Part shown: positions 3,608-54,452 of the stretch, piece after piece
Layout: each line of letters starts with the position of its first letter
Numbering within the stretch: position 1 is the first letter of the stretch
Translations under genes and position numbers: made by a program
NCBI GenBank assembly: GCA_002328025.1
Contig: DCVE01000013.1
Span: 42,579-106,578 of the forward strand
DNA: 64,000 nt
Source: Patescibacteria group bacterium UBA2196
Lineage (GTDB): Bacteria; Patescibacteriota; Patescibacteriia; UBA2196
Direction: 5' to 3'
The notes under the pieces: model-generated
Databases searched by the model: none
Told to the model about the DNA's origin: nothing
What the model saw: only the letters and a program-made list of their open reading frames with translations

Positions 3608-4792
3608 ATGAAAATTTGTTTAATCAATAATTTATACGATCCCTATACCAAAGGTGGGGCAGAAACAGTGGTAAAAGCTACAGCTGATGGTTTGGTTAAA
3701 AACGGACACACCGTCATGATAATTACCGCCGGTAGAAAAGATGAAACAATTGAGCAAGATATTAAAATTTACCGCATCAGGGCGTGGAATTTTTTTTCTT
3801 TTTTTGACATTGATAAAAAACCAGCTTTTCTGCGTTTAGTGTGGTGGTTTTTTAATATTTTTAATTTAAGTGTTGTTAAAAAAGTTGAAAGAATTTTACA
3901 ACAAGAACACCCAGATTTGGTGCATACGCACAACTTAAGTGGTTTGAGTTTTTTATTACCACGCAGTATTAAAAAATTAAAAATAAAACACATCCATACT
4001 TTGCATGATATTCAATTGGTTTATCCGTCTGGGCAATTAATTTATGATCAAGAAAAGAATTTTATTAACACCTTTTTTTTAAGGGTTTGGTATGAAAAAT
4101 TAGTACGTACGTTGTTTAATTCGCCACAAATAATTATTTCACCTTCGCAGTGGCTGTTAGATTTTTATCTGAAAAAGAATTTTTTTACCCACAGTCAAAA
4201 GGAATTGGTTTTAAACCCAAGCACTCAAATTTTTGATGGTCAACTTAGATTACCAAAAATTAAAGTTGATGAATTTAATTTTTTATATGTGGGCAGGGTG
4301 GAAGAATATAAAGGGATTATGTTATTAATACAAGCTTTTAAAAAAATATCCATGAGTGATAAAAAGGTTTTTTTACACATTGCTGGTACTGGACGCGAAA
4401 TGAAAAAAGCACATAGTTTGGCTGCAGAAAGCGAAAATATTTTTTTCTATGGTCAATTAGAAAGAGAACGTTTGACAGATTTGTACGGACAGGCGCAAGT
4501 TTTGATATTACCAACTTTGACCTATGAAAACGCGCCAACAGTTATTGTGGAAGCTTTTAGCCGTGGTTTGCCTGTTATTGCCTCTAATCTTGGCGGGATT
4601 ATTGAATTAGTACAAGAAGATAAGACGGGTTTTTTGTTTAAACCAGGCGACATTGAGGGTTTGGTAAAAACCATGTTGAATGTTTTAGATAATGACAACC
4701 TAAATAATTTAAGTCAGAATTGTTGGCAACGCGCTAAAAAACATAATTTAGACATGTATATAAAAAGGCTGGAAGAAATTTATTTAAGCTAA
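3608..4792 (+). CDS. glycosyltransferase family 1
   Basis: KICLINNLYDPYTKGGAE N-term; C-term E-x7-E GT1 motif (VIVEAFSRGLPVIAS). Confidence 0.75.
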   Translation: MKICLINNLYDPYTKGGAETVVKATADGLVKNGHTVMIITAGRKDETIEQDIKIYRIRAWNFFSFFDIDKKPAFLRLVWWFFNIFNLSVVKKVERILQQEHPDLVHTHNLSGLSFLLPRSIKKLKIKHIHTLHDIQLVYPSGQLIYDQEKNFINTFFLRVWYEKLVRTLFNSPQIIISPSQWLLDFYLKKNFFTHSQKELVLNPSTQIFDGQLRLPKIKVDEFNFLYVGRVEEYKGIMLLIQAFKKISMSDKKVFLHIAGTGREMKKAHSLAAESENIFFYGQLERERLTDLYGQAQVLILPTLTYENAPTVIVEAFSRGLPVIASNLGGIIELVQEDKTGFLFKPGDIEGLVKTMLNVLDNDNLNNLSQNCWQRAKKHNLDMYIKRLEEIYLS

Positions 4793-4829
4793 TTTGCTTA
4801 GATATTTTTTTTGTGTCATAATGTTTTAT

Positions 4830-5501
4830 ATGTCAGATAATAAAGAAAAAACTCAACAGCTTTTGGAAGAAAAAATTAAAGCCTTAAATGAAGCACCAGA
4901 TTTTAAGGAATATTTTAAATTGACGCGCGACATAAATCGCGAGTTTATTGGTACTTGGGAGTTTATAGAAAAATTTTTGGAGCCCGATCCGATTTTATCT
5001 TATAAATTTTTGATTGAAAGTTTTGGTAAAAAAGCTGAATTAGACAAAGAAAATAATAAATTAGAAAAAGATAAAGAAGAAACGATAGAAAAGTTTACTA
5101 AGCAGGTTTTGGATCTTTTTGAAAAACGTGATTTTGAAAAAACTACGCAGCAGCTTTTTTATGTATTACTGGGTAATGTGATGGAACACGTTGGTCAAGC
5201 CGAAACTGATGTAAATAAATTTAATTTAGAAACTGATCTGTACCCAAAATTAAAAATGCCTTTGTCGTTGGCGTTTTTTATGTTTCAAAATTTGGCCTTT
5301 GGGCCAGTCGCTGCCAAAATTAACACCTTAAGTCCAGAGTATTTAAGAAAATATTGCGCATTGGTTTTGGGTTTGTGGCGGACTGTATTTGAACTGATGG
5401 CCTATGAAAGACACATGGCTAAACATGATAAAGGACACCATGCAACCCACCAACATGATGATATGGTGATAAAAAATGATGCACAAAAGGAGCAAGAGTA
5501 A
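4830..5501 (+). CDS. hypothetical protein, His-rich C-terminus
   Basis: ORF track (start moved to internal MSDNK); charged coiled-coil-like; C-term HDKGHHATHQHDD. Confidence 0.5.
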   Translation: MSDNKEKTQQLLEEKIKALNEAPDFKEYFKLTRDINREFIGTWEFIEKFLEPDPILSYKFLIESFGKKAELDKENNKLEKDKEETIEKFTKQVLDLFEKRDFEKTTQQLFYVLLGNVMEHVGQAETDVNKFNLETDLYPKLKMPLSLAFFMFQNLAFGPVAAKINTLSPEYLRKYCALVLGLWRTVFELMAYERHMAKHDKGHHATHQHDDMVIKNDAQKEQE

Positions 5502-5616: not shown

Positions 5617-5990
5617 AAGGGGTGGGTGAGCAATCGCCCTAATATCCGCTAATTGGTGGATTGTTGGGGAGGAAAGTCCGGACGCCACACAAAGGATAGT
5701 TCTGAAACAGAACCGAGCATAAGAAATACAAGAAAAATAAGTTACGATCGTTTTATTTTTCTTGGTCAATTTTAAAACTCCGAGCAAGCGCCACAGAAAA
5801 TAAACCGCCTTGTTAGTTAAAAGACTCACGAGGTAAGGATGAAACCGCGGTGTAAGAGACCACGCGCTTCTATGGTGACATAGATTTGGGTAAGCCTTAT
5901 CCGGCGCAAGTCCCTTTAAAAGGACGCGTTAGATAGATGATTGCATTCCGTTTAGACGGAAACAGAATCCGGCTTATGATCCCACCCTTT
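5617..5990 (+). ncRNA. rnpB: RNase P RNA (bacterial type A)
   Basis: conserved P4 strands GGAGGAAAGTCCGGAC and AACAGAATCCGGCTTA; terminal P1 pairing AAGGGGTGGG/CCCACCCTT; GC-rich in an AT-rich background; no ORF. Confidence 0.85.
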
Positions 5991-6012
5991 GGATATATAA
6001 GAATTTTAATTT

Positions 6013-7480: not shown

Positions 7481-8572
7481 ATGAAAATCGCCCTCATTAA
7501 CGACATGTTGGTTCAAGAAGGCGGGCAAGAAAGAGTGTTGCGCGCTTTGCAAGAGCTTTATCCAGAGAGCCCGACTTTTGTTTTAATTTATGATGAACAA
7601 AAAAAAGCCAAGTATTACAGAGAATCAGATTTAAGGGCTTCTTTTTTACAGCACATGCCAGGTATTAAAACAAAGTATCAATGGTATTTACCACTGATGC
7701 CTATGGCCATAGAAGCACATGATTTAAAAGCTTTTGATGTCATTATTTCTTCCAGCTCATCTTTTGCTAAAGGTGTAATTACTAAACCCGAAACCTCCCA
7801 TATTTGTTATTGTCACACACCAACCAGATATTTGTGGTCTGATTTTAAAGGTTATGTAGAAGACCTACCCTATCCTGGTGTAATTAAGAAATTTTTACCA
7901 TTTTATTTATCTTTTTTGCGTAATTGGGATTGGTCAGCGGCACAACGAGTGGATTATTTTTTGAGTAATTCCAAAAACGTGCAAAGTCGTGTTAAAAAAT
8001 ATTATCAAAAAGATTCGACAATAATTTATCCACCAGTTGAGGTGGAGAAATTTTCTATTGCCAATAAAATTAAAGATTACTATTTAATTGGTGGACGGTT
8101 GGTGCCTTATAAGCGTTATGATGTGGCAATTAAGGCTTTTAATAAATTAGATCTACCACTCAAGGTCTTTGGTACTGGGCCAGAAGCGAATAACCTTAGA
8201 AAGATAGCAAAAAATAATATTGAGTTTTTGGGCGAAGTTACAGATGATGAAAAGATGCAACTATATAGTCAAGCGATAGCTTTTATAAATCCACAAGAAG
8301 AAGATTTTGGTATTACAGCCGTGGAAGCGATGGCAGCCGGTCGTCCGGTAATTGCTTATGAAGCCGGAGGTGCCTTAGAGACAGTTGAGCCAAATTTGAG
8401 TGGAGAATTTTTTGAAGATCAAACTTGGGAAAGTTTGGCTAATACAATCATTCATTTTAAACCAGAGAAATATGATGCACAAAAAATACGTGCGCACGCT
8501 GGACAGTTTAGTAAAGAAAATTTTCAGCGTCAAATGATAGAGTTTGTAGATAAAATTAGTAACAAAAAATAG
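7481..8572 (+). CDS. glycosyltransferase family 1
   Basis: GT1 C-terminal motif EDFGITAVEAMAAGRPVIA. Confidence 0.75.
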   Translation: MKIALINDMLVQEGGQERVLRALQELYPESPTFVLIYDEQKKAKYYRESDLRASFLQHMPGIKTKYQWYLPLMPMAIEAHDLKAFDVIISSSSSFAKGVITKPETSHICYCHTPTRYLWSDFKGYVEDLPYPGVIKKFLPFYLSFLRNWDWSAAQRVDYFLSNSKNVQSRVKKYYQKDSTIIYPPVEVEKFSIANKIKDYYLIGGRLVPYKRYDVAIKAFNKLDLPLKVFGTGPEANNLRKIAKNNIEFLGEVTDDEKMQLYSQAIAFINPQEEDFGITAVEAMAAGRPVIAYEAGGALETVEPNLSGEFFEDQTWESLANTIIHFKPEKYDAQKIRAHAGQFSKENFQRQMIEFVDKISNKK

Positions 8573-17037: not shown

Positions 17038-18678
17038 ATGCAGAAGGTTAAAAAATATATTTTTGTGGTGGGCGGTGTGATGTCGTCGGTTGGCAAGGGC
17101 GTGGCAGCCGCTTCGTTGGCTAAAATTTTACAGTCCAAGGGTTATAGTATTGCCAGCATAAAATGTGATATGTATGTAAATGTGGATGCGGGTACCATTC
17201 GGCCGGCAGAGCATGGCGAGGTTTTTGTGGGCGAAGATGGAGTGGAAGCCGACCAGGATTTGGGTAATTATGAAAGGTTTACAAACCAAACTTGCACGCG
17301 TGATAATTATATCACCACGGGCCAGGTTTATCAGGAAGTTATTCGGCGGGAAAGAAATTTGGAATACGATGGCGAGGATGTCGAGGTGGTGCCGGATATT
17401 CCGAATGAAATAATTAGGCGTATTGAGGTTTGTCAAAGAAAAAACAAAGCCGAGGTGACAGTGGTGGAAATTGGTGGCACAGTTGGCGAATATCAAGTTT
17501 TGTTGTTTTTAGAAGCAGCCAGAATGATGAAAGTAAAAAATCCGGCAGATGTGTTTTTTGTCTTGGTTAGTTATTTACCAACCCCAACGATTTTGGGTGA
17601 ACAAAAATCAAAACCAACACAGTATGCCATTCGGACGCTTAATTCAGCTGGTATTATGCCGGATTTTATTTTATGTCGAGCTGATCGAGCGGTTAAAGAA
17701 AATATCAAAAACACCATCAGCACCGTGTGTAGTTTGCCGCACGAACGTATTATTTCTGCGCCAGATGTTTATTCAATTTATGATGTGCCAATTAATTTTG
17801 AAAAAGAAAATTTGGGTCAGGTGATGTTGCAGACCATGGGTTTAAAAGCCAGAACACAAAAACTTGAAGATTGGAAAAAATTAGCTTCTAAAATAAAAAA
17901 AATAAATAAAAAAGTTACTATTGGCATTGTGGGTAAATATTTTAATTTTAAGTCGTGTCGTGATACTTACATTTCTGTTATTGAGGCCATCAACCACGCA
18001 TGTTGGTTTAATAATGTTAAACCAGAAATTTTATGGTTGGATTCAGAAGAATATGAAAAAAATGATAAAAAATTAAAAGAACTAAAAAATGTTGATGGTA
18101 TTATTGTGCCGGGAGGTTTTGGTCAGCGTGGTACAGAAGGTATGCTTTTAGCAGCTCGTTATGCCAGAGAAAATAAAATTCCATATTTTGGTTTGTGTTT
18201 GGGTATGCAAATTATGACCATTGAATTTTCACGGAATGTTTTAAAATTAAAAAAAGCTAATTCAACTGAACTGGATCTAAATACAACCAACCCAGTTATT
18301 GCAACGATGGAAGAGCAAAAGAAAAATATTGCGGAAAAAAATTATGGTGGCACCATGCGTTTGGGTTCTTATAAAGCCAACCTAGAAATAGATTCCTTAA
18401 GTTATAAGGCTTATGGGGAAAAAATAATTTCTGAACGTCATCGCCATCGGTATGAATTTAATAATTATTATCAACAAAGACTAGAAGCAGCTGGTTTAAA
18501 AGTAACTGGTTTCAATCGTGAGCGGGGATTGGTAGAAATTGTGGAGGTAAAAAATCATCCGTGGATGGTGGGTGTACAGTTTCATCCAGAGTTTAAATCG
18601 CGACCGCTTAATCCGCACCCGTTGTTTAAAGATTTTGTCAAAGCTAGTTTAAAGAGAAAAAATAAAATAAAAAAATAG
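17038..18678 (+). CDS. pyrG: CTP synthase
   Basis: YIFVVGGVMSSVGKG N-term; C-terminal glutamine amidotransferase domain (GLCLGMQ). Confidence 0.9.
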   Translation: MQKVKKYIFVVGGVMSSVGKGVAAASLAKILQSKGYSIASIKCDMYVNVDAGTIRPAEHGEVFVGEDGVEADQDLGNYERFTNQTCTRDNYITTGQVYQEVIRRERNLEYDGEDVEVVPDIPNEIIRRIEVCQRKNKAEVTVVEIGGTVGEYQVLLFLEAARMMKVKNPADVFFVLVSYLPTPTILGEQKSKPTQYAIRTLNSAGIMPDFILCRADRAVKENIKNTISTVCSLPHERIISAPDVYSIYDVPINFEKENLGQVMLQTMGLKARTQKLEDWKKLASKIKKINKKVTIGIVGKYFNFKSCRDTYISVIEAINHACWFNNVKPEILWLDSEEYEKNDKKLKELKNVDGIIVPGGFGQRGTEGMLLAARYARENKIPYFGLCLGMQIMTIEFSRNVLKLKKANSTELDLNTTNPVIATMEEQKKNIAEKNYGGTMRLGSYKANLEIDSLSYKAYGEKIISERHRHRYEFNNYYQQRLEAAGLKVTGFNRERGLVEIVEVKNHPWMVGVQFHPEFKSRPLNPHPLFKDFVKASLKRKNKIKK

Positions 18679-25191: not shown

Positions 25192-26193
25192 ATGTTTAGA
25201 CAATCATTGCTTAAAAAAATTAAAAAAAGTGGTTTAATCGGTCGTGGCTGCAATAATTTTTTGGTGGCTGAAAAATGGGAAATGGTAAAGCGTGTAAAAG
25301 GCGCGGAAAAGTTCGTGGTGTGTAATATTTCCGAATCAGAGCCGGGTATATTTAAAGATAAATATATTTTGGAAAAATGGCCACAATTGGTGTTGGATGG
25401 TATTAATTTAGCCATGCATGAAATTAAAGCTAAAAAAGGTTTTGTCTATCTAAATCCACTGTATTATGGTGAATTTCAAGCCAGTCTGGAACAAATAATT
25501 TTAAAAAATAATTATAGTATCGAATTATTTGAGAAGCCCTTGCACGACTATGTGGGTGGAGAAGAAACAGCGGTTTTAAACTCTATGCAAGGTTTGAGAG
25601 TTGAGCCGCGCTTAAAACCACCCTATCCAACCAAAGTTGGTTTTTATGGTGCGCCGACACTAATTCACAACTGTGAAACTTTTTATGCCGTGTCTCTAAC
25701 AAATTCTGGTGTTTATAAAAATACTCGTTTTTATTGTTTGTCTGGTGTTGATAGAGCAAATGATGTAAAAGAATTAGCAACTGATTTAACGGTTCGTGCG
25801 GTTTTACAAGAATTTGATCATACACCAAGCGTTGATTTTTTTTATCAAGTTGGCGGAGGAGCGGCTGGTTTTTGTTATAATTACAAGCAATTGAATCGTA
25901 AATTTGAAGGCTCTCCAGCCATTATTATTTATAAAAACAATGATTCTGAACAGGCAATTGTGATGAAATGGTTGGATTTTTTTCGTAAAGAATCTTGTGG
26001 TCAGTGTGTGCCATGTCGGGAGGGAACTTTTCGTTTGCGTAATTTGATGTATACATATTATCAAGGTGGAAAACTTGATAAAAAAGCTTTTGATGATTTA
26101 ATTTTGTCATTACAAAAAACTAGCTTATGTGCTTTGGGAAGAACTGCTACAAATGCCGTGGTTTCGTATTTTAAAAACGTAAAAGGAATATGA
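25192..26193 (+). CDS. NuoF-like flavoprotein subunit (hydrogenase diaphorase-type, short)
   Basis: GGEETAVLNSMQG (NuoF GEETALL motif); CGQCVPCREG N3 4Fe-4S motif; FMN motif degenerate (GRGCNNF); translationally coupled to hydA. Confidence 0.75.
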   Translation: MFRQSLLKKIKKSGLIGRGCNNFLVAEKWEMVKRVKGAEKFVVCNISESEPGIFKDKYILEKWPQLVLDGINLAMHEIKAKKGFVYLNPLYYGEFQASLEQIILKNNYSIELFEKPLHDYVGGEETAVLNSMQGLRVEPRLKPPYPTKVGFYGAPTLIHNCETFYAVSLTNSGVYKNTRFYCLSGVDRANDVKELATDLTVRAVLQEFDHTPSVDFFYQVGGGAAGFCYNYKQLNRKFEGSPAIIIYKNNDSEQAIVMKWLDFFRKESCGQCVPCREGTFRLRNLMYTYYQGGKLDKKAFDDLILSLQKTSLCALGRTATNAVVSYFKNVKGI

Positions 26194-28139
26194 AAAAAAT
26201 AAAATTTTATATTAATAATAAAGAATATACTGCTTTGGAAAATGATTCTGTTTTGGACGTGGCTTTACGAGAAGGACTAAATGTTCCGCATTTGTGTAAA
26301 CATCCGGATTTGGCCATTAAAGGTAATTGTCGTTTGTGTTTGGTACAAGTGGAAAATAAAGGTGTGGTGACAGCCTGTTCGACTGTGGTGGAAAAAGGGA
26401 TGCAAATTTTTTTAGAAACCGAAGAAGTTAAAAGCTTACGCAAGACAAATTTGGAGCTTATTTTTTCTGAACATCAGGAAAAGTGTGCCACTTGTTTGTA
26501 CCAAGATAATTGTCAAATATTAAAATATGCAGCTGAATTTGGTATAAAAATTTCGCGTTTTGAAGACAGAAAAAAACATTATTCAACCTGGCAGTTTGGT
26601 GATTCCATACGGTTTGATAGTTCTAAATGTATTGATTGTCGAAATTGTGTGGAAGTTTGCGATAAACAAGCCTGTAGTTTTTATGAAATTGCAGAAAGAG
26701 GAGTTGAAACAATCATTAAACCCAAAGGAGAAGTTGGTGGAATTACCTCCCCCCACCCCCTCCTTCTAAAGGAGGGGAGCTTAGATCTGTTAAAAAATGA
26801 TGTAGATAAATTTGATTGTACTTATTGTGGGCAATGTGTGACACATTGTCCGGTGGGAGCAATTAGCGGGGTATCGCATTGGGAGGAAGTTGAAAAATTA
26901 TTAAAAGATCGAGCTGGAAAAATTTTGGTTGTTGAAATTGCTCCGTCTATTCGTGTCTCTATTGGTGAAGAGTTTAATGAACCATACGGTAAGATTGTGA
27001 CTGGGCAATTAGCGGCTTCTATGAAAGCTTTGGGGTTTGATTATGCTTTTGATGTCAATTTGGGTGCCGATTTTACCACTTATGAGGAAGCACAAGAAGT
27101 GGTGGAAATGGTTTTGAATAATAAATCGCGTCCATTATTTACTTCGTGTTGTCCGGCGTGGGTAAAATTTGTTGAATTTTATTATCCGGAATTTATTGCC
27201 CATTTGACTAGTGCTAATTCACCGCACATGTGTTCTGGACCAATTATTAAAACCTATTTTGCCGATTATTTAAAAAAAGATCCACGCGATATTGTGGTGG
27301 TTTCAATTATGCCGTGTACCTCAAAAAAACATGAAATTAATTTAGAGACGCACACCATTGATTTGGGTTGGTGTTTGGAAAGATTGGATTTACCTAACAT
27401 TAAAAATATTTGTCCGGATAGAAAACAACTACAGGGCGTAAAAATAAAAGCCGTGGATTATGTTTTAACCACGCGTGAATACGCCCATCTTTTGCATAAA
27501 CACAAGATTGATTTATCAAAACTTAAAGCAGAAAAATTAGACAAACCTTTGGGCGTCTATTCTGGTGCCGGAGCAATTTATGGCGCGACCGGTGGAGTTA
27601 TGGAATCAGCTCTTAGAAGCGCGGATTATTTTTTCCGAGTCTGGGATGAAACCGATTCATTAAAATCAGTGGTCAAAGGAGAAAATTATAAATTGAAAAA
27701 GAAAAGATTTTCTAAATTATTACAAAGTCGCATTGAGTTTAAAGAAGTGCGTGGTCAAAATGGAATTAAAGAAGCCAGGGTAAAGGTGGGGGGGCGTAAG
27801 TTAAATGTTGCGGTCGTTAATGGTTTGGGTAATGCTAAAAAAATTTTGGATGACCTTAAAGCCGGTAAGGTAAAATATGATTATGTGGAGGTTATGGCCT
27901 GCCCGGGTGGTTGTATTGGTGGTGGTGGTCAGCCCATTCCGACTAATTCAAAAATTAGAGCCCAACGCGCCAACGCAGTTTATGAAATTGATAAAAACTT
28001 AGCCATTCGTACAGCTCACGAAAATCCAAGTCTTTTGGAGGTGTATAATAAATATTTTAAGGGTGATAAAGAAATAATTGAAAAAGTTTTACACAGTAAA
28101 TTTAAGGTTAAACAAAAAACAGGATATACGATAGTATAA
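26190..28139 (+). CDS. hydA: [FeFe] hydrogenase catalytic subunit with N-terminal 2Fe-2S and 4Fe-4S ferredoxin domains
   Basis: H-cluster motifs TSCCPAW (L1), MPCTSKKHE (L2), EVMACPGGCIGGGGQP (L3); CIDCRNCVEVC and CTYCGQCVTHCP ferredoxin motifs. Confidence 0.85.
   Translation: MKKIKFYINNKEYTALENDSVLDVALREGLNVPHLCKHPDLAIKGNCRLCLVQVENKGVVTACSTVVEKGMQIFLETEEVKSLRKTNLELIFSEHQEKCATCLYQDNCQILKYAAEFGIKISRFEDRKKHYSTWQFGDSIRFDSSKCIDCRNCVEVCDKQACSFYEIAERGVETIIKPKGEVGGITSPHPLLLKEGSLDLLKNDVDKFDCTYCGQCVTHCPVGAISGVSHWEEVEKLLKDRAGKILVVEIAPSIRVSIGEEFNEPYGKIVTGQLAASMKALGFDYAFDVNLGADFTTYEEAQEVVEMVLNNKSRPLFTSCCPAWVKFVEFYYPEFIAHLTSANSPHMCSGPIIKTYFADYLKKDPRDIVVVSIMPCTSKKHEINLETHTIDLGWCLERLDLPNIKNICPDRKQLQGVKIKAVDYVLTTREYAHLLHKHKIDLSKLKAEKLDKPLGVYSGAGAIYGATGGVMESALRSADYFFRVWDETDSLKSVVKGENYKLKKKRFSKLLQSRIEFKEVRGQNGIKEARVKVGGRKLNVAVVNGLGNAKKILDDLKAGKVKYDYVEVMACPGGCIGGGGQPIPTNSKIRAQRANAVYEIDKNLAIRTAHENPSLLEVYNKYFKGDKEIIEKVLHSKFKVKQKTGYTIV
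26757..26777 (+). repeat. perfect 9-bp palindrome CCCCTCCTT-CTA-AAGGAGGGG inside hydA (in-frame)
   Basis: seen directly; same element as at 41611-41631 in alaS. Confidence 0.6.
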
Positions 28140-28146
28140 ATTTTAA

Positions 28147-29436
28147 ATGTTTAAGATTATGGCGTACCTAGAATCAATTAAATTTGTTAAAAACAAATCC
28201 GCCGACTGGCGGAATAAAACTGTTTTAGTTCGTTGTGATTTTGATGTGCCTTTAGATGCCGACAAAATTAAAGACGACAGCCGATTAAAAGCGAGTCTTT
28301 TGACAATTAAATTTTTATTAAAAAATAAATGCCAGATAATTTTAATGGGACATTTGGGTCGGCCAAATGGAAAGGTTGTTTTGGAATTAGGTTTAAAGCC
28401 AGTCCAGCAACGTTTGGAAGAATTGTTAAAAACAAAAATTGAATTAGTTAAGTTTGGTGAAATTAGTCCTTCGGTAAAAAATAAACGAGATGAAAAAAAC
28501 AAGATTATAATGTTAGAAAATCTACGTTTTTGGTTGGGTGAAGAAAAGAATGATAAAAATTTTGCACGACAATTGGCGAGTTTGGCTGATATATATGTAA
28601 ATGAAGCGTTTGCTGTGTCGCATCGTGCGTGTGCATCGGTGGATGCCATAAAAAATTATTTACCCAGTTATGCCGGATTTAATTTAACCAAAGAAATTGA
28701 AAAATTGTCACAAGTTTTAAATCGACCACCCAGACCTTTGGTGGCTATTATTGGTGGAGCAAAAATTGAAACCAAACTACCGGTTTTGGATAAATTTTTG
28801 GCTAAAGCTGATTATTTATTGGTGGGTGGGGCGATTGCCAATAATTTTTTTAAAATTTTGAATTATGAAGTCGGCCAGTCTTTGATTGATCGAGAGTATT
28901 TACCAGCAGCTAAAAAATTGTGGCAAAAATCAAAGAGTGGTGCGCTTAATTTTGTGGTAAAGGATAAACAGTTGGTTGTTGATAACGAGCTTATTGGCAG
29001 TAAATTAGATTTAGCAACAATAAAAAATTTACGTCACAAAATAGTTTTACCAATTGACGTGGCAGTTAAAAATTTAAAAACACAAGAAAAAGAAATAAAA
29101 ACACCAAATCAAGTTAATTTAAATGATAAAATTTTGGATATTGGACCGCAAACACTGGAGTTTTATGGACGTATAATAAAAGGCGCTCGTTGTGTTGTTT
29201 GGAATGGACCTATGGGGCAGTTTGAAGCACCAGAATTTGCTTTAGGAACTTTTGGTGTGGCCGAGTTAATTATTAAGTCGCGTGCGCGCGCAGTTATGGG
29301 TGGTGGAGAGACCGAGGAAGCCTTAAAAGGTGTTTTACATAATAAAGAATTACCCAGAAGAATTTTCGTTTCCACTGGTGGCGGGGCGATGTTAGAATTT
29401 TTAGGTGGTAAGAAATTACCGGGACTAGAAAAATAA
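28147..29436 (+). CDS. pgk: phosphoglycerate kinase
   Basis: VLVRCDFDVPLD N-term; GGGA...GG C-terminal motifs. Confidence 0.9.
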   Translation: MFKIMAYLESIKFVKNKSADWRNKTVLVRCDFDVPLDADKIKDDSRLKASLLTIKFLLKNKCQIILMGHLGRPNGKVVLELGLKPVQQRLEELLKTKIELVKFGEISPSVKNKRDEKNKIIMLENLRFWLGEEKNDKNFARQLASLADIYVNEAFAVSHRACASVDAIKNYLPSYAGFNLTKEIEKLSQVLNRPPRPLVAIIGGAKIETKLPVLDKFLAKADYLLVGGAIANNFFKILNYEVGQSLIDREYLPAAKKLWQKSKSGALNFVVKDKQLVVDNELIGSKLDLATIKNLRHKIVLPIDVAVKNLKTQEKEIKTPNQVNLNDKILDIGPQTLEFYGRIIKGARCVVWNGPMGQFEAPEFALGTFGVAELIIKSRARAVMGGGETEEALKGVLHNKELPRRIFVSTGGGAMLEFLGGKKLPGLEK

Positions 29437-40765: not shown

Positions 40766-42751
40766 ATGACTTCCAAAGAATTGCGTCAAAGATATATTGA
40801 GTTTTTTAAAAAAAATGGGCATGTAGAAATTCCCAGTGCTTCTTTGATTCCGGAAAATGACCCTTCTATTCTTTTTACCACTGCTGGTATGAGTCCACTC
40901 GTGCCATTTCTTTTAGGTGAAAAACATCCGGCTGGCAATAAATTAGTTAATTCGCAAAAATGTATTAGAACAGGTGACATTGATGGTGTTGGTGATGCTT
41001 GCCACCATACTTTTTTTGAAATGTTGGGTCATTGGAGTTTGAATGATTATTTTAAAACTGAAGCCATTGAATTGACTTATAAATTTATTACTGAAGATTT
41101 AAAAATAGATCAAAAATATCTGGCCGTTTCTGTTTTTGTTGGAGATAATGATGCGCCGTTTGATGCCGAAAGTTATCAAAAATGGCAAGAGCTGGGTTTT
41201 TCTGAAAAAAGAATTACTAAATTACCCAAAAAAGATAATTGGTGGGAATTGCCTGGAAATTCTGGGCCGTGTGGGCCAGATACAGAAATGTTTTATTGGA
41301 CTGGGGACAAAAATTCTGTGCCAGAAGTTTTTGATCCGCAAAATAAAAATTGGGTAGAAATTGGCAATGATGTTTTGATGCAATATGAAAAAATTGGCGA
41401 AAACAAATATCAACCTGCCAAACAAAAAAATATTGATAATGGCACAGGTTTGGAAAGACTTTTAGCAGTTATGAACGGTCTTGATGATAATTATCAAACA
41501 GATTTATTTTTACCAATAATTGAGGAAATTGAAAAGTTAAGCGGGAAAAAATATACCCCTCTGTCCGCAGTAGCGGACTCCTCCCCTTATCAAGGGGAGG
41601 ATAAGAACATCCCCTCCTTTCTAAGGAGGGGCCTCACGACGGAGTCGGAGGGGGAGATAAAATCAATGCGTATTATCGCCGACCATTTGCGCGCGGCCAC
41701 TTTTATCATGGCTGATCCGGCTGGTATTGCGCCTTCAAACACAGATCAAGGCTATGTGGTTAGAAAGTTAATTCGTCGAGCTATTCGTCATGGTAAATTA
41801 ATTGGCATTGATCAGAATTTTTGTGTTGAAATTGCTGAAGTAGTAATTAATAATATGCAGGATATTTATGCAGAACTAGAAACTAATAAAAAATTTGTTT
41901 TAGATAATATAAATTTAGAAGAAGAAAAATTTAGAAAAACATTGCAAGACGGAGAAAAGAAATTAAATAAAATTTTTGATAAGGTTGAAATATTTGAAGA
42001 AATGGAGGAAGGTGACAAACTAGAAACTTATAATTTTGCTGATTACAGTGGTTTAGGTAAAGACTTTTTTGTCTTATCTTCCGAATATGGTTATCCTTTG
42101 GAATTAAGTTTAGAAGCTTTGGATGAAAAAAAAGAGAGATTAGGTGATGGTAAAATACCAAAAGAGGAAAAAGAAAAAATACAACGGAAATTTGATGATT
42201 TTAAAGAAAAAGTGATTAAAAGTTATAATATTGAAATGCAAAAACATCAAGATCTTTCGCGCACTGCCAGCGCTGGCAAATTTAAAGGTGGCTTAGCCAA
42301 TCAAAGCGAAATGGCTGTTAAATACCATACTGTTTCGCATTTATTATTGCAAGCTTTAAGAATGGTCTTGGGCGAACATGTTTTTCAAAAAGGTTCTAAC
42401 ATTACCGACGAAAGATTGCGTTCAGATTTTTCTCATGGGGGAAAAATGACACCAGAACAAATTGTCCAAGTTGAAAACATAGTTAATGAACAAATACAAA
42501 AAAATTTAACAGTCGAATGTAATGAAATGAGTTTAGATGAAGCTAAAAATCAAGGCGCCATGGGAGTTTTTGCCAATAAATATGGTGAGCGAGTTAAGGT
42601 ATACACAGTTGGCGATGACCATTTTTGTTTTTCTAAAGAAATTTGTGGCGGACCACATGTAAAGAATACTGGCGAATTAGGCCATTTAAAAATAATAAAA
42701 GAGGAGGCCAGTTCAGCGGGCGTCAGAAGAATTAAAGCAATTTTAGAATAA
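40766..42751 (+). CDS. alaS: alanine--tRNA ligase (short form: catalytic plus editing domains, no C-Ala domain)
   Basis: class II motifs (FTTAGM, HHTFFEMLGHWS); editing-domain HxxxH / CGGPHV; only 661 aa; ~100-nt GC-rich palindromic insertion. Confidence 0.85.
   Translation: MTSKELRQRYIEFFKKNGHVEIPSASLIPENDPSILFTTAGMSPLVPFLLGEKHPAGNKLVNSQKCIRTGDIDGVGDACHHTFFEMLGHWSLNDYFKTEAIELTYKFITEDLKIDQKYLAVSVFVGDNDAPFDAESYQKWQELGFSEKRITKLPKKDNWWELPGNSGPCGPDTEMFYWTGDKNSVPEVFDPQNKNWVEIGNDVLMQYEKIGENKYQPAKQKNIDNGTGLERLLAVMNGLDDNYQTDLFLPIIEEIEKLSGKKYTPLSAVADSSPYQGEDKNIPSFLRRGLTTESEGEIKSMRIIADHLRAATFIMADPAGIAPSNTDQGYVVRKLIRRAIRHGKLIGIDQNFCVEIAEVVINNMQDIYAELETNKKFVLDNINLEEEKFRKTLQDGEKKLNKIFDKVEIFEEMEEGDKLETYNFADYSGLGKDFFVLSSEYGYPLELSLEALDEKKERLGDGKIPKEEKEKIQRKFDDFKEKVIKSYNIEMQKHQDLSRTASAGKFKGGLANQSEMAVKYHTVSHLLLQALRMVLGEHVFQKGSNITDERLRSDFSHGGKMTPEQIVQVENIVNEQIQKNLTVECNEMSLDEAKNQGAMGVFANKYGERVKVYTVGDDHFCFSKEICGGPHVKNTGELGHLKIIKEEASSAGVRRIKAILE
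41560..41660 (+). repeat. GC-rich palindromic insertion in alaS (hairpins at 41564-41577, 41580-41600, 41611-41631)
   Basis: CCTCCCCTT-ATC-AAGGGGAGG and CCCCTCCTT-TCT-AAGGAGGGG perfect 9-bp stems; in-frame (…SAVADSSPYQGEDKNIPSFLRRGLTTESEGEIKS…). Confidence 0.55.
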
Positions 42752-53854: not shown

Positions 53855-54224
53855 GCAAGGTCTTGGAGCGACCTTTGCACATTGCAGGGCTTTTTAACAC
53901 AAAACGGGAGGATGGGAATGCAACTCAAATTTGAAATATGAGTTACATAGAGGTCGACTGCCTGAAATAAAGTTTCAAGGACGCGGGAAACTGCGATCCG
54001 AAACTTCAGGTGGTTTTTCCTCACCCGGCGACATTTCAGGGGATTTTTAATCCCCTCCCTCACACCCATACCACACCGAAAAGTCTCATTGAGACGCTAA
54101 GCTCACGGCACTATTGAGAGCACAGCGTTTTCATACATACGGACCTAGTAAGTTTCTGTGGGTCGGGTTGATTTTAAGGGCTAGAACTCTGCTGTACCTC
54201 GGTACACAGTTCAGCCCTTTTTTT
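53855..54224 (+). ncRNA. candidate structured non-coding RNA of unknown class (~370 nt)
   Basis: bracketed by a consensus promoter and a strong terminator (GGGCT.GAACT...AGTTC.AGCCC plus T7 at 54178-54224); GC ~48% in a 30% GC genome; only tiny ORFs; 5' hairpin AAGGTC/GACCTT; internal GGGGATTTTTAATCCCC hairpin. Confidence 0.35.
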
Positions 54225-54325
54225 ATTTGCTTTATATTGTTTTTTCTTTTAAAATTAGAGTGTATTTTGGGTTATTTGTTGGTTGGCCAGCGATATATAT
54301 TTAATAGTTAATTATTCATCTTTTT

Positions 54326-54397
54326 GCCCCCATCGTCTAATGGTTAGGACACATGGTTCTCAGCCATGTAATTGGGGTTCGATTCCCCATAGGGGTA
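54326..54397 (+). tRNA. tRNA-Glu (anticodon CUC)
   Basis: cloverleaf by eye: D-stem GTCT/GGAC; anticodon stem CATGG/CCATG with loop TTCTCAG; T-arm TGGGG-TTCGATT-CCCCA; acceptor has one C-A mismatch and a G-U pair; CCA not encoded. Confidence 0.65.
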
Positions 54398-54452
54398 AGA
54401 AGATGAATAGTTAATTGGGTGGTGTGAATTTTATTATCCGTGAATATTATTT

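Follow-up and report, generated by a model that had tools for sequence, protein, structure and literature searches.

Palindromic repeats that lie in frame within bacterial genes are already known, as the Rickettsia palindromic elements (RPEs) and as intragenic repetitive extragenic palindromes (REPs) in a few Proteobacteria and Verrucomicrobia. RPE-1 to RPE-8 were reportedly described by Ogata et al. in 2000 and 2002, and RPEs have, to our knowledge, no protein-coding partner. The G+C-rich palindromic clusters of yeast mitochondria are mobile hairpins of an A+T-rich genome that occasionally lie in frame (var1). Intragenic REPs, including RPE-4 and RPE-6, have been described by Di Nocera et al. 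(PMC3733652), and miniature transposable elements with inverted repeats (MITEs) such as Correia and Nezha have been reviewed (PMC3184786, PMC10969869). Here we analyze a palindrome within the [FeFe] hydrogenase gene (hydA) of Patescibacteria group bacterium UBA2196, together with a second site in its alanine--tRNA ligase gene (alaS). Both lie on a stretch of 64,000 nucleotides (assembly GCA_002328025.1, contig DCVE01000013.1, positions 42,579 to 106,578), the whole of which is called the window below. The hydA palindrome is probably a unit of a widespread tagged hairpin repeat that was inserted in frame in a tolerant loop, the alaS insertion being an inverted pair of such units and the gene-carrying form of the repeat bracketing a DUF559 gene.

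Like RPEs, this element is a short palindromic repeat in an A+T-rich reduced genome, lying in frame in housekeeping genes at tolerant surface positions and translated with them. It also resembles the yeast mitochondrial clusters, as G+C-rich, apparently mobile hairpins in an A+T-rich genome that are sometimes in frame in a coding gene, but it belongs to another sequence family and another domain of life, and the clusters are without a DUF559-like nuclease gene. What the window itself contains is an in-frame palindromic repeat with a known type of behavior, while its coupling to DUF559 points to a REP-like system that relies on another nuclease.

A perfect palindrome in frame within hydA

The homologues of the hydA open reading frame (ORF; Table 1) carry the domains Fe_hyd_lg_C/Fe_hyd_SSU, the protein matches FeFe_hydrog_A of NCBIfam with 401 bits, and its best match among solved structures is HydA1 of 8a6t (E=2e-118). 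The preliminary description of this locus had reported a perfect palindrome in frame within this gene, between ferredoxin-like cluster motifs, and both statements hold. Positions 26745-26780 make up 12 codons (ACC TCC CCC CAC CCC CTC CTT CTA AAG GAG GGG AGC = TSPHPLLLKEGS), and the insertion site falls between two ferredoxin-type 4Fe-4S motifs of the form CxxCxxCxxxC (C147..C157 and C210..C220). In an AlphaFold2 model made on an alignment of 42 homologues (mean predicted local distance difference test score, pLDDT, 81), the linker of aa 182-207 that bears the insert is the sole internal segment with a pLDDT below 50, and it is modeled as coil.

The arms recur in alaS as the preliminary description had stated, with TCT as the loop. 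A pattern search of the window allowing up to two mismatches found two sites only, those in hydA and alaS, and a scan for hairpins with perfect stems of at least 8 bp and loops of 3-8 nt found three polypyrimidine/polypurine G+C-rich hairpins only, one in hydA and two in alaS; relaxed hairpins and tag motifs gave no further copies in the window. None of 100 dinucleotide-preserving shuffles contained a match to the palindrome, so the arms in hydA and alaS are not a product of chance. On the other hand, the earlier argument from base composition is weaker than was thought, because the window has a G+C content of 35.4%, not about 30%, and G+C-rich 21-mers are common in it. The arms, described as almost wholly C and G, are 6/9 G+C. 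Another hairpin of the window, in the N-terminus of the phosphoglycerate kinase (PGK) gene (28196-28215), was judged to be due to chance; it sits in normally conserved sequence.

A tagged hairpin family across many phyla

We scanned genomes, one per species, for CCCCTCCTT-N2-6-AAGGAGGGG and obtained at least 120 stretches of unrelated genomes, with 152 exact copies among the matches listed, to which the counts below refer; the motif is thus far from a singleton. Judging from the record titles, the matches fall into at least about 18 phylum-level groups, including Bacteroidota (many Pontibacter and Hymenobacter isolates), Acidobacteriota, Nitrospirota, Pseudomonadota (including Thiomargarita), Cyanobacteria, Chloroflexota, Planctomycetota, Verrucomicrobiota and Chlamydiota, and at least 13 loci are labeled as Patescibacteria. 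The copies share more than the palindrome: a tag, GGGG[AT]GGT, is found within 45 nt of the hairpin on one or both sides in 119 of the 152 copies (78%), compared with 0.7% of random 45-nt windows of the same loci. The tag occurs as GGGGTGGT in 93 copies and as GGGGAGGT in 33, mostly 2-5 nt away from the hairpin; in another class the distance is 12-22 nt, and the gap contains a small extra hairpin (tGGC..GCC type).

The unit is about 35 bp long and consists of the hairpin, 2-4 nt and the tag GGGG(T/A)GGT, with the short-form consensus (C/T)T-CCCCTCCTT-N3-AAGGAGGGG-YTR-GGGG(T/A)GGT(T). The hydA sequence, ACCTCCCC-CCAC-hairpin-AG, is the reverse-complement form of this consensus. In many loci two units form an inverted pair 20-100 nt apart, as they do in alaS, and pairs of the form hairpin-tag..tag-hairpin without a gene between them are seen for example in L025, L036 and L096 (loci fetched from other genomes are numbered with the prefix L); gene-less pairs occur in both of the arrangements described below. 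A long form of the unit is intergenic both in L053, from a metagenome-assembled genome (MAG) of an unclassified bacterium, and in L008, from a related Patescibacteria genome with a HydA of 70% identity. The L008 unit shows that the family is intergenic close to the lineage of the window.

Among the Patescibacteria loci, 12 of 16 copies are intergenic, and the other four lie in an open frame within conserved genes, namely those for MgsA/RarA (L070), Lgt (L076), a beta-CASP metallo-beta-lactamase RNase (L089) and TsaE (L090). One further in-frame copy was found in PanE of a Chitinophaga MAG (L041), and in the other genomes most copies are intergenic. Patescibacteria, members of the Candidate Phyla Radiation (CPR), thus show in central genes ([FeFe] hydrogenase, AlaRS, RarA, Lgt, TsaE and the beta-CASP RNase) the same behavior that is known from RPEs and intragenic REPs.

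The 18 specified bases of the palindrome are also present in 81 viral-contig stretches of IMG/VR, and several of these contigs have at least six copies. Examples are UViG_3300038435_000085, UViG_3300044996_000692 and UViG_3300049983_000004 (L214/L226), within L221-L300; one viral contig has a DUF559 gene and hairpins together. Such contigs could be vehicles between phyla, or they could be host-derived or misassigned DNA.

A local origin at each site, by replication slippage or template switching, or else an artefact of assembly, should also be considered here. Template switching can, as is generally known, create short inverted repeats. We give this explanation next to no credence: the same 18 bases and tag stand in hundreds of unrelated places, and assemblies made independently from different samples (contigs of ENA and Logan, MAGs of NCBI) share the sequence, by which we regard both versions of it as already refuted.

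Several candidate identities were tried for the hairpin. Rfam at the gathering threshold matched only RNase P RNA and tRNA-Glu in the whole window, scans by E-value returned nothing but weak, chance-level matches for either the alaS insert or L019, and a described structured RNA was rejected because no relevant Rfam family matched. attC-like core sites (RYYYAAC/GTTRRRY) were rejected too, as they fit some Pontibacter flanks but not most and the units pair in inverted, not direct, orientation. Neither GGGGTGGT nor GGGGAGGT agrees with GGGGWSAS, the motif of the inverted repeats associated with TIRYT (PMC3733652).

An inverted pair of units in alaS

The alaS insert consists of two long-form units face to face, with a spacer between them (Table 1). 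The right-unit segment cctcaCGACGGAGTCGga matches the long-form unit of L053 (its reverse complement: tgcctCGACGGAGTCGggcGGGGTGGTT), and the segment CGACGGAGTCG matches that unit nearly exactly. The small hairpin of the left unit, together with a hairpin of the CCTCCCC type, is seen again in L133, a Kuenenbacteria MAG whose alaS also has an insert, within that insert. In an alignment of 44 homologues, aa 267-294 of AlaRS are gapped in more than 60%, and the stretch from SGKKYG to ALRVIADH, with 35 residues in between in the window protein, has only 7 there in the solved AlaRS of Aquifex (3HTZ).

The arms (26760-26775 and 41614-41628) contain an anti-Shine-Dalgarno-like CCTCCTT and a Shine-Dalgarno-like AAGGAGG. 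The alaS copy includes CCTCCTTTCTAAGGA, which we take to be the 3' end of 16S rRNA with the next bases in many Firmicutes. This resemblance may be a coincidence or a clue to the origin of the repeat.

Orthologues and the age of the insertions

The HydA loop is a hot spot of length variation. In distant HydA proteins (from Kuenenbacteria, Paceibacterota, Falkowbacteria and unnamed metagenome sequences) ..KPT is followed by D..KDC.YCGQC with nothing between, and in the close clade 7 to about 55 extra residues, different in nearly every sequence, separate KPKGE from DLLKND(..KFDCTYCGQC). Some of these loops contain palindromes of their own: one of about 70 nt, TGTCATCCTGAACTTGTTTC...GAAACAAGTTCGGCATGA, in L007, another, GTCATTCCCGCGAAAGCGGGA...TCCTCGCTTTCGCGAGGATGAC, in L009, and a longer, related one in L008. 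Palindromes of these loops are translated as CHPELVSGS..KQVRHD and VIPAKAG..DPRFREDD. The L007 palindrome has two more copies in its locus, both intergenic and one with perfect 26-bp arms. Since these palindromes differ, different genomes took up different repeat families at the HydA loop.

Two more insertions distinguish HydA of this clade from all solved [FeFe] hydrogenases, in the window at 27339-27452 and 27624-27728 (aa ~384-421 and 479-513). The first of them is conserved in the clade, with conserved cysteines and the consensus IDLGWCLERL..NI...C, and it is A+T-normal and non-palindromic. Short hairpins of the GCGGGAAT type, (A)T(T/C)CCCGC-GAAA-GCGGG(A/G)AT, were seen inside the PGK genes of two related genomes, L009 (12317-12336) and L010 (12739-12758), which suggests further in-frame repeat insertions in glycolytic genes.

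Another carrier of the insertions is a sister species (MAGs GCA_964505965.1 and GCA_035388785.1 and a Logan contig), whose HydA is 93% identical as a protein and 87% as a gene. Its hydA has the insert at the same site in a slightly decayed form, CCCCTCCTT-ATA-AATGAGGGG, with one stem base pair lost, and its alaS has an insert of about 101 nt, again at the same site. Because the sister has both insertions at the same sites, both are older than the split of the two species. The preliminary description had asked whether the extra HydA residues are an indel unique to this genome; they are an indel, absent from distant homologues, but they are not unique, and the sister encodes nearly the same residues with the same G+C-rich codons. 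As a whole the hydA unit does not stand out significantly from the rest of its gene in conservation between the two species (it differs at 2 of 36 nt where the mean is 4.6, a level of conservation that 14% of windows reach). In the alaS insert 3 of 77 paired positions have changed and 5 of 24 unpaired ones (Fisher p=0.017).

The stem conservation in alaS bears on the main rival explanation, a selected cis-acting structure in the mRNA or DNA of hydA and alaS, which might act as a translational pause (through the Shine-Dalgarno-like and anti-Shine-Dalgarno-like motifs), as an mRNA stabilizer or as a protein-binding site that aids folding or cofactor insertion. Both folds are stable. The hydA hairpin has a folding energy of -16.3 kcal/mol as RNA and -9.4 kcal/mol as DNA, and the alaS insert folds into a multibranch structure of four hairpins closed by the outer tags, at -59 kcal/mol (z=-4.9 for RNA, z=-6.2 for DNA). 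The two kinds of arm motif were read directly from the sequence, and their link to function is a putative one. Even so, the fit is poor and we regard such a structure as rather unlikely, because elsewhere the element is mostly intergenic and in unrelated genes, the sister's hydA stem is already one base pair short, and orthologues do with unrelated sequence at the site or with none. In addition, the segment around the hydA hairpin, taken whole, is not unusually stable (z=-1.35), and the hairpin is not an intrinsic terminator here, since neither strand has a T-run behind it.

The inserts might instead be functional peptides, for example a partner-binding loop, the palindromy being incidental. 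That they were kept in two species, in hosts that are both essential or central enzymes, would agree with this. However, the two genes translate the identical arms in different frames, hydA giving PLLLKEG and alaS PSFLRRG, from which it follows that the DNA and not the peptide is conserved. Moreover, both substitutions that separate the sister's hydA hairpin from that of the window change the residue (L to I, K to N), the segment is predicted to be disordered, and the site is hypervariable among orthologues. We therefore consider a peptide function very unlikely, and an in-frame insertion of a mobile repeat remains our preferred explanation for both sites.

Association with DUF559 nuclease genes

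In Pontibacter cellulosilyticus SD6 (L019), two inverted units bracket an ORF of 117 aa at 4780-5130 that belongs to DUF559 (Pfam PF04480, E=9e-31). When this protein was searched by tblastn against all fetched loci, DUF559 genes were found 13-100 bp from the hairpin at 8 of the 120 palindrome loci listed. All-against-all clustering of the ORFs within 120 bp of a hairpin gave DUF559 as the sole family present in at least three loci, among the matches listed. The association also holds in the opposite direction. An alignment of six hairpin-associated DUF559 proteins was used to pick 80 metagenome-contig loci by protein patterns only; an exact palindrome lies within 200 bp of the DUF559 gene in 31 of them (39%), against a chance expectation of the order of 1e-8 for 400 bp, and the tag lies in the DUF559 flanks in 67 (84%), proportions that hold for one DUF559 subfamily because the query was built from hairpin-associated genes.

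Usually the order is hairpin, 2-3 nt, GGGGTGGT, 20-50 nt and the DUF559 ORF, followed by a right end of 5-25 nt, ACCACCCC, 2-3 nt or a small hairpin, the hairpin and AG(CT), so that the whole unit spans about 0.5 kb and its inverted ends contain the hairpins. On a cyanobacterial chromosome (L117 281-3724, minus strand), a full hairpin-DUF559-hairpin module lies in frame within an MmeI-family type IIG restriction-modification gene, where it splits the MmeI_Mtase domain, and in L091 (979-2130, minus strand) DUF559 shares one open frame with a Type_ISP_C domain.

The architecture invites comparison with classical REPs and their inverted doublets (REPINs), which are moved by a REP-associated tyrosine transposase (RAYT), an IS200/IS605-like Y1 HUH transposase. 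REPs and the present units alike are hairpins of 20-40 nt (about 35 nt here) that bear a short conserved tag on one side, are found singly, as inverted doublets and in clusters, and bracket a small enzyme gene (as REPtrons), and some of them are intragenic, as REPs are in Opitutus terrae, Rickettsia conorii, Thauera and Xanthomonas (PMC3733652). But the REP tag is GTAG or CGTC and adjoins the stem (PMC3733652), whereas the present tag is GGGG(T/A)GGT and usually stands 2-5 nt away. REPtrons bracket a Y1 HUH transposase, the present units a Vsr-like DUF559 of the PD-(D/E)XK type, and no RAYT-like ORF family recurred beside the hairpin in the clustering of at least 120 loci, among the matches listed. 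REP families are also usually specific to a species or genus, while the present core is common to many phyla. Membership in the classical REP/RAYT class was rejected on the tag and on the bracketed gene, and we see hardly any chance that a RAYT moved these units.

Table 1 Features of the hydA and alaS sites in the window and of comparable loci in other genomes
Feature	Position	Strand	Basis
hydA, [FeFe] hydrogenase large subunit, group A (HydA-like), 649 aa, intact ORF	26190..28139	+	ORF list, homologues, NCBIfam
Insert-bearing linker of HydA, aa 182-207 (EVGGITSPHPLLLKEGSLDLLKNDVD), between two 4Fe-4S motifs	26733..26810	+	HydA alignment, AlphaFold2 model
One full repeat unit in hydA, right-end polarity	26745..26779	+	Matches cross-phylum consensus ACC(A/T)CCCC-N2-4-CCCCTCCTT-N3-AAGGAGGGG-AG
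Parts of the hydA unit: tag ACCTCCCC; spacer CCAC; hairpin; AG	26745-26752; 26753-26756; 26757-26777; 26778-26779	+	Sequence
hydA hairpin CCCCTCCTT-CTA-AAGGAGGGG, perfect, 9-bp arms, 3-nt loop, read P L L L K E G	26757..26777	+	Sequence, hairpin scan
alaS, alanine--tRNA ligase, short form, 661 aa, intact ORF	40766..42751	+	NCBIfam PRK01584, 690 bits (cutoff 529)
Gene-less inverted pair of long-form units in alaS, ~101 nt, in frame, 28 extra residues (aa 267-294)	41556..41656	+	Fold, alignment
Left unit: tag-like CCCCTC (41556-41561); small hairpin GTCCGC-AGTA-GCGGAC (41563-41578); main hairpin variant	41556..41601	+	
Left-unit main hairpin variant TCCTCCCCTT-ATC-AAGGGGAGGA	41579-41601	+	Hairpin scan
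Right unit: main hairpin; small hairpin CGAC-GGA-GTCG (41637-41647); degenerate tag GAGGGGGAG (41648-41656)	41611..41656	+	
Right-unit hairpin CCCCTCCTT-TCT-AAGGAGGGG, read P S F L R R G	41611-41631	+	Sequence
Long-form units (AACCACCCC, small hairpin, CCCCTCCTT..AAGGAGGGG), intergenic	L008 14152-14172; L053 1706-1726		
Hairpin-bracketed DUF559 genes, one subfamily	L019 4677-5168; L134-L213 (e.g. L136, L148, L151, L159, L205)		
Unrelated long palindromes in HydA-orthologue loci	L007 6374-6505, 9899-9967, 15419-15454; L009 10538-10681; L008 10535-10717		

Discussion

The preliminary description had compared the hydA palindrome with RPEs, and in behavior the comparison stands: the insertions are in frame, both host ORFs remain intact and have NCBIfam scores of full-length enzymes, and most homologues are without the inserts. 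Identity with an RPE family does not stand. NCBIfam carries RPE domain models. With E-values up to 1, the two insert peptides matched 0 families, the presence of the RPE models in the release used being unconfirmed, AlaRS matched only tRNA-ligase and editing families, and the best 25 of 84 matches of HydA were to hydrogenase or iron-sulfur families. An RPE identity was rejected since no NCBIfam family, RPE or other, appeared in the insert peptides. The unit of 35 nt also differs in size from RPE-1 (~100-150 nt), and, unlike RPEs, which are known from one genus, the present family is found in at least about 18 titled phyla and has DUF559 as a protein-coding partner.

MITEs offer another comparison. 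As in MITEs, there are terminal inverted repeats around a short non-coding interior as well as gene-carrying units with the same ends, and the gene-less pairs in L025, L036 and L096 look like internal deletions of a gene-carrying unit. Unlike in MITEs, the smallest copies are single ends. The recurrent neighbor is only DUF559, which is not a DDE enzyme, and no parent with a DDE transposase was found among the matches listed. On the nuclease side, a review of PD-(D/E)XK enzymes (PMC3424549) unites VSR, DUF559, DUF2726 and the homing endonuclease of a group I intron in a single clade, and so a selfish role of the Vsr-like fold has a precedent. The genes of Vsr-fold homing endonucleases (I-Bth0305I, PDB 3r3p; PMC3424549) are similar to the present system in that a small nuclease gene of selfish type lies in frame in a host gene, as in L117, but the present units have no intron or intein context and possess hairpin-bearing inverted ends, and DUF559 is not known to cleave a specific site.

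We propose that a unit would have been inserted into hydA in the ancestor of the window species and its sister, and would have survived there because it fell into a disordered, length-tolerant surface loop, left the frame open and added a whole number of codons. The DUF559 unit of about 0.5 kb would be the gene-carrying form, from which single units and gene-less pairs may derive; their relation to the DUF559 form would then be that of REPs or REPINs to the RAYT gene, or that of MITEs to a transposon. The spread of the units would require an enzyme acting in trans, for which DUF559 is the obvious candidate, and could take place by cleavage and repair, as in homing, or by a route like that of REPs and RAYTs. 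DUF559 or another such enzyme presumably mobilizes the units, while the copies in the window are probably passive passengers by now. In the gene-dense genomes of Patescibacteria many insertions may fall in genes, and selection would have filtered them for frame and loop position, so that the survivors would be those that keep the frame, bring no stops and lie in disordered loops. Once fixed, units would drift toward the A+T bias of the genome, which might produce the hypervariable N/K-rich linkers of the other orthologues.

More broadly, it is possible, although we would not count on it, that the hairpin and tag units together with DUF559 constitute an undescribed pan-bacterial selfish-DNA system that is similar to REP/RAYT but is driven by a Vsr-like PD-(D/E)XK nuclease, and that settles in frame in essential genes, as gene-less units or even as the complete module. 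The evidence that suggests a DUF559-driven system is statistical, a strong association, and not mechanistic. Searches for descriptions of the motif, of in-frame palindromes in CPR genomes and of DUF559 as a partner of repeats found none, most subscription journals lying outside the search. The preliminary description, which knew of no such element in a CPR-like genome, is in line with this searchable literature; nevertheless, the element is not special to the CPR, because the family spans many phyla and is tied to DUF559.

Besides the restriction of the reverse test to one subfamily, several observations weigh against our interpretation. Within the 64-kb window there are only two sites, both of them intragenic, and tblastn found no DUF559 gene there or in the fetched loci of related Patescibacteria. 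Two arrangements exist, with the tags inside in most loci and outside in L019, a pattern that is equally compatible with a fixed transposon structure and with units that cluster around the gene. Both copies are fixed in the sister species, with no sign of recent movement in the lineage, and the nearest orthologues free of the insert are only ~75% identical, so that insertion boundaries and target-site duplications are not definable. Finally, the conservation of the alaS stems could reflect selection on RNA or DNA structure.

If DUF559 does mobilize or maintain the units, a widely distributed domain would gain a testable role, and there would be a second REP-like system that differs mechanistically from the first. 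The hypervariable loops in proteins of reduced genomes could then be explained by repeated insertion followed by decay to A+T, and a selfish system of this kind would be one source of the lineage-specific protein insertions in the reduced genomes of Patescibacteria. In practice, the units inflate or fragment alignments of CPR marker proteins and yield spurious small ORFs, with peptides of the PLLTKEGLGEV type.

Other observations

The hydA-orthologue locus L007 holds a second system of a small ORF between inverted repeats with gene-less copies. At 17322-17786, a 23S_rRNA_IVP gene (PF05635, 17376-17726) lies between 38-nt A+T-rich inverted repeats, and a gene-less pair of the same flanking repeats is found at 7876-7972, just downstream of hydA.

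In the window, RNase P RNA of bacterial class A was located at 5618-5992 (Rfam RF00010, 169.6 bits). A further hairpin, AGGGGATT-TTT-AATCCCCT followed by the C-rich run CCCTCACACCCATACC, occupies 54038-54072, about 250 nt upstream of tRNA-Glu (54325-54398); it has CCCCTCC in common with the repeat and is without a tag.

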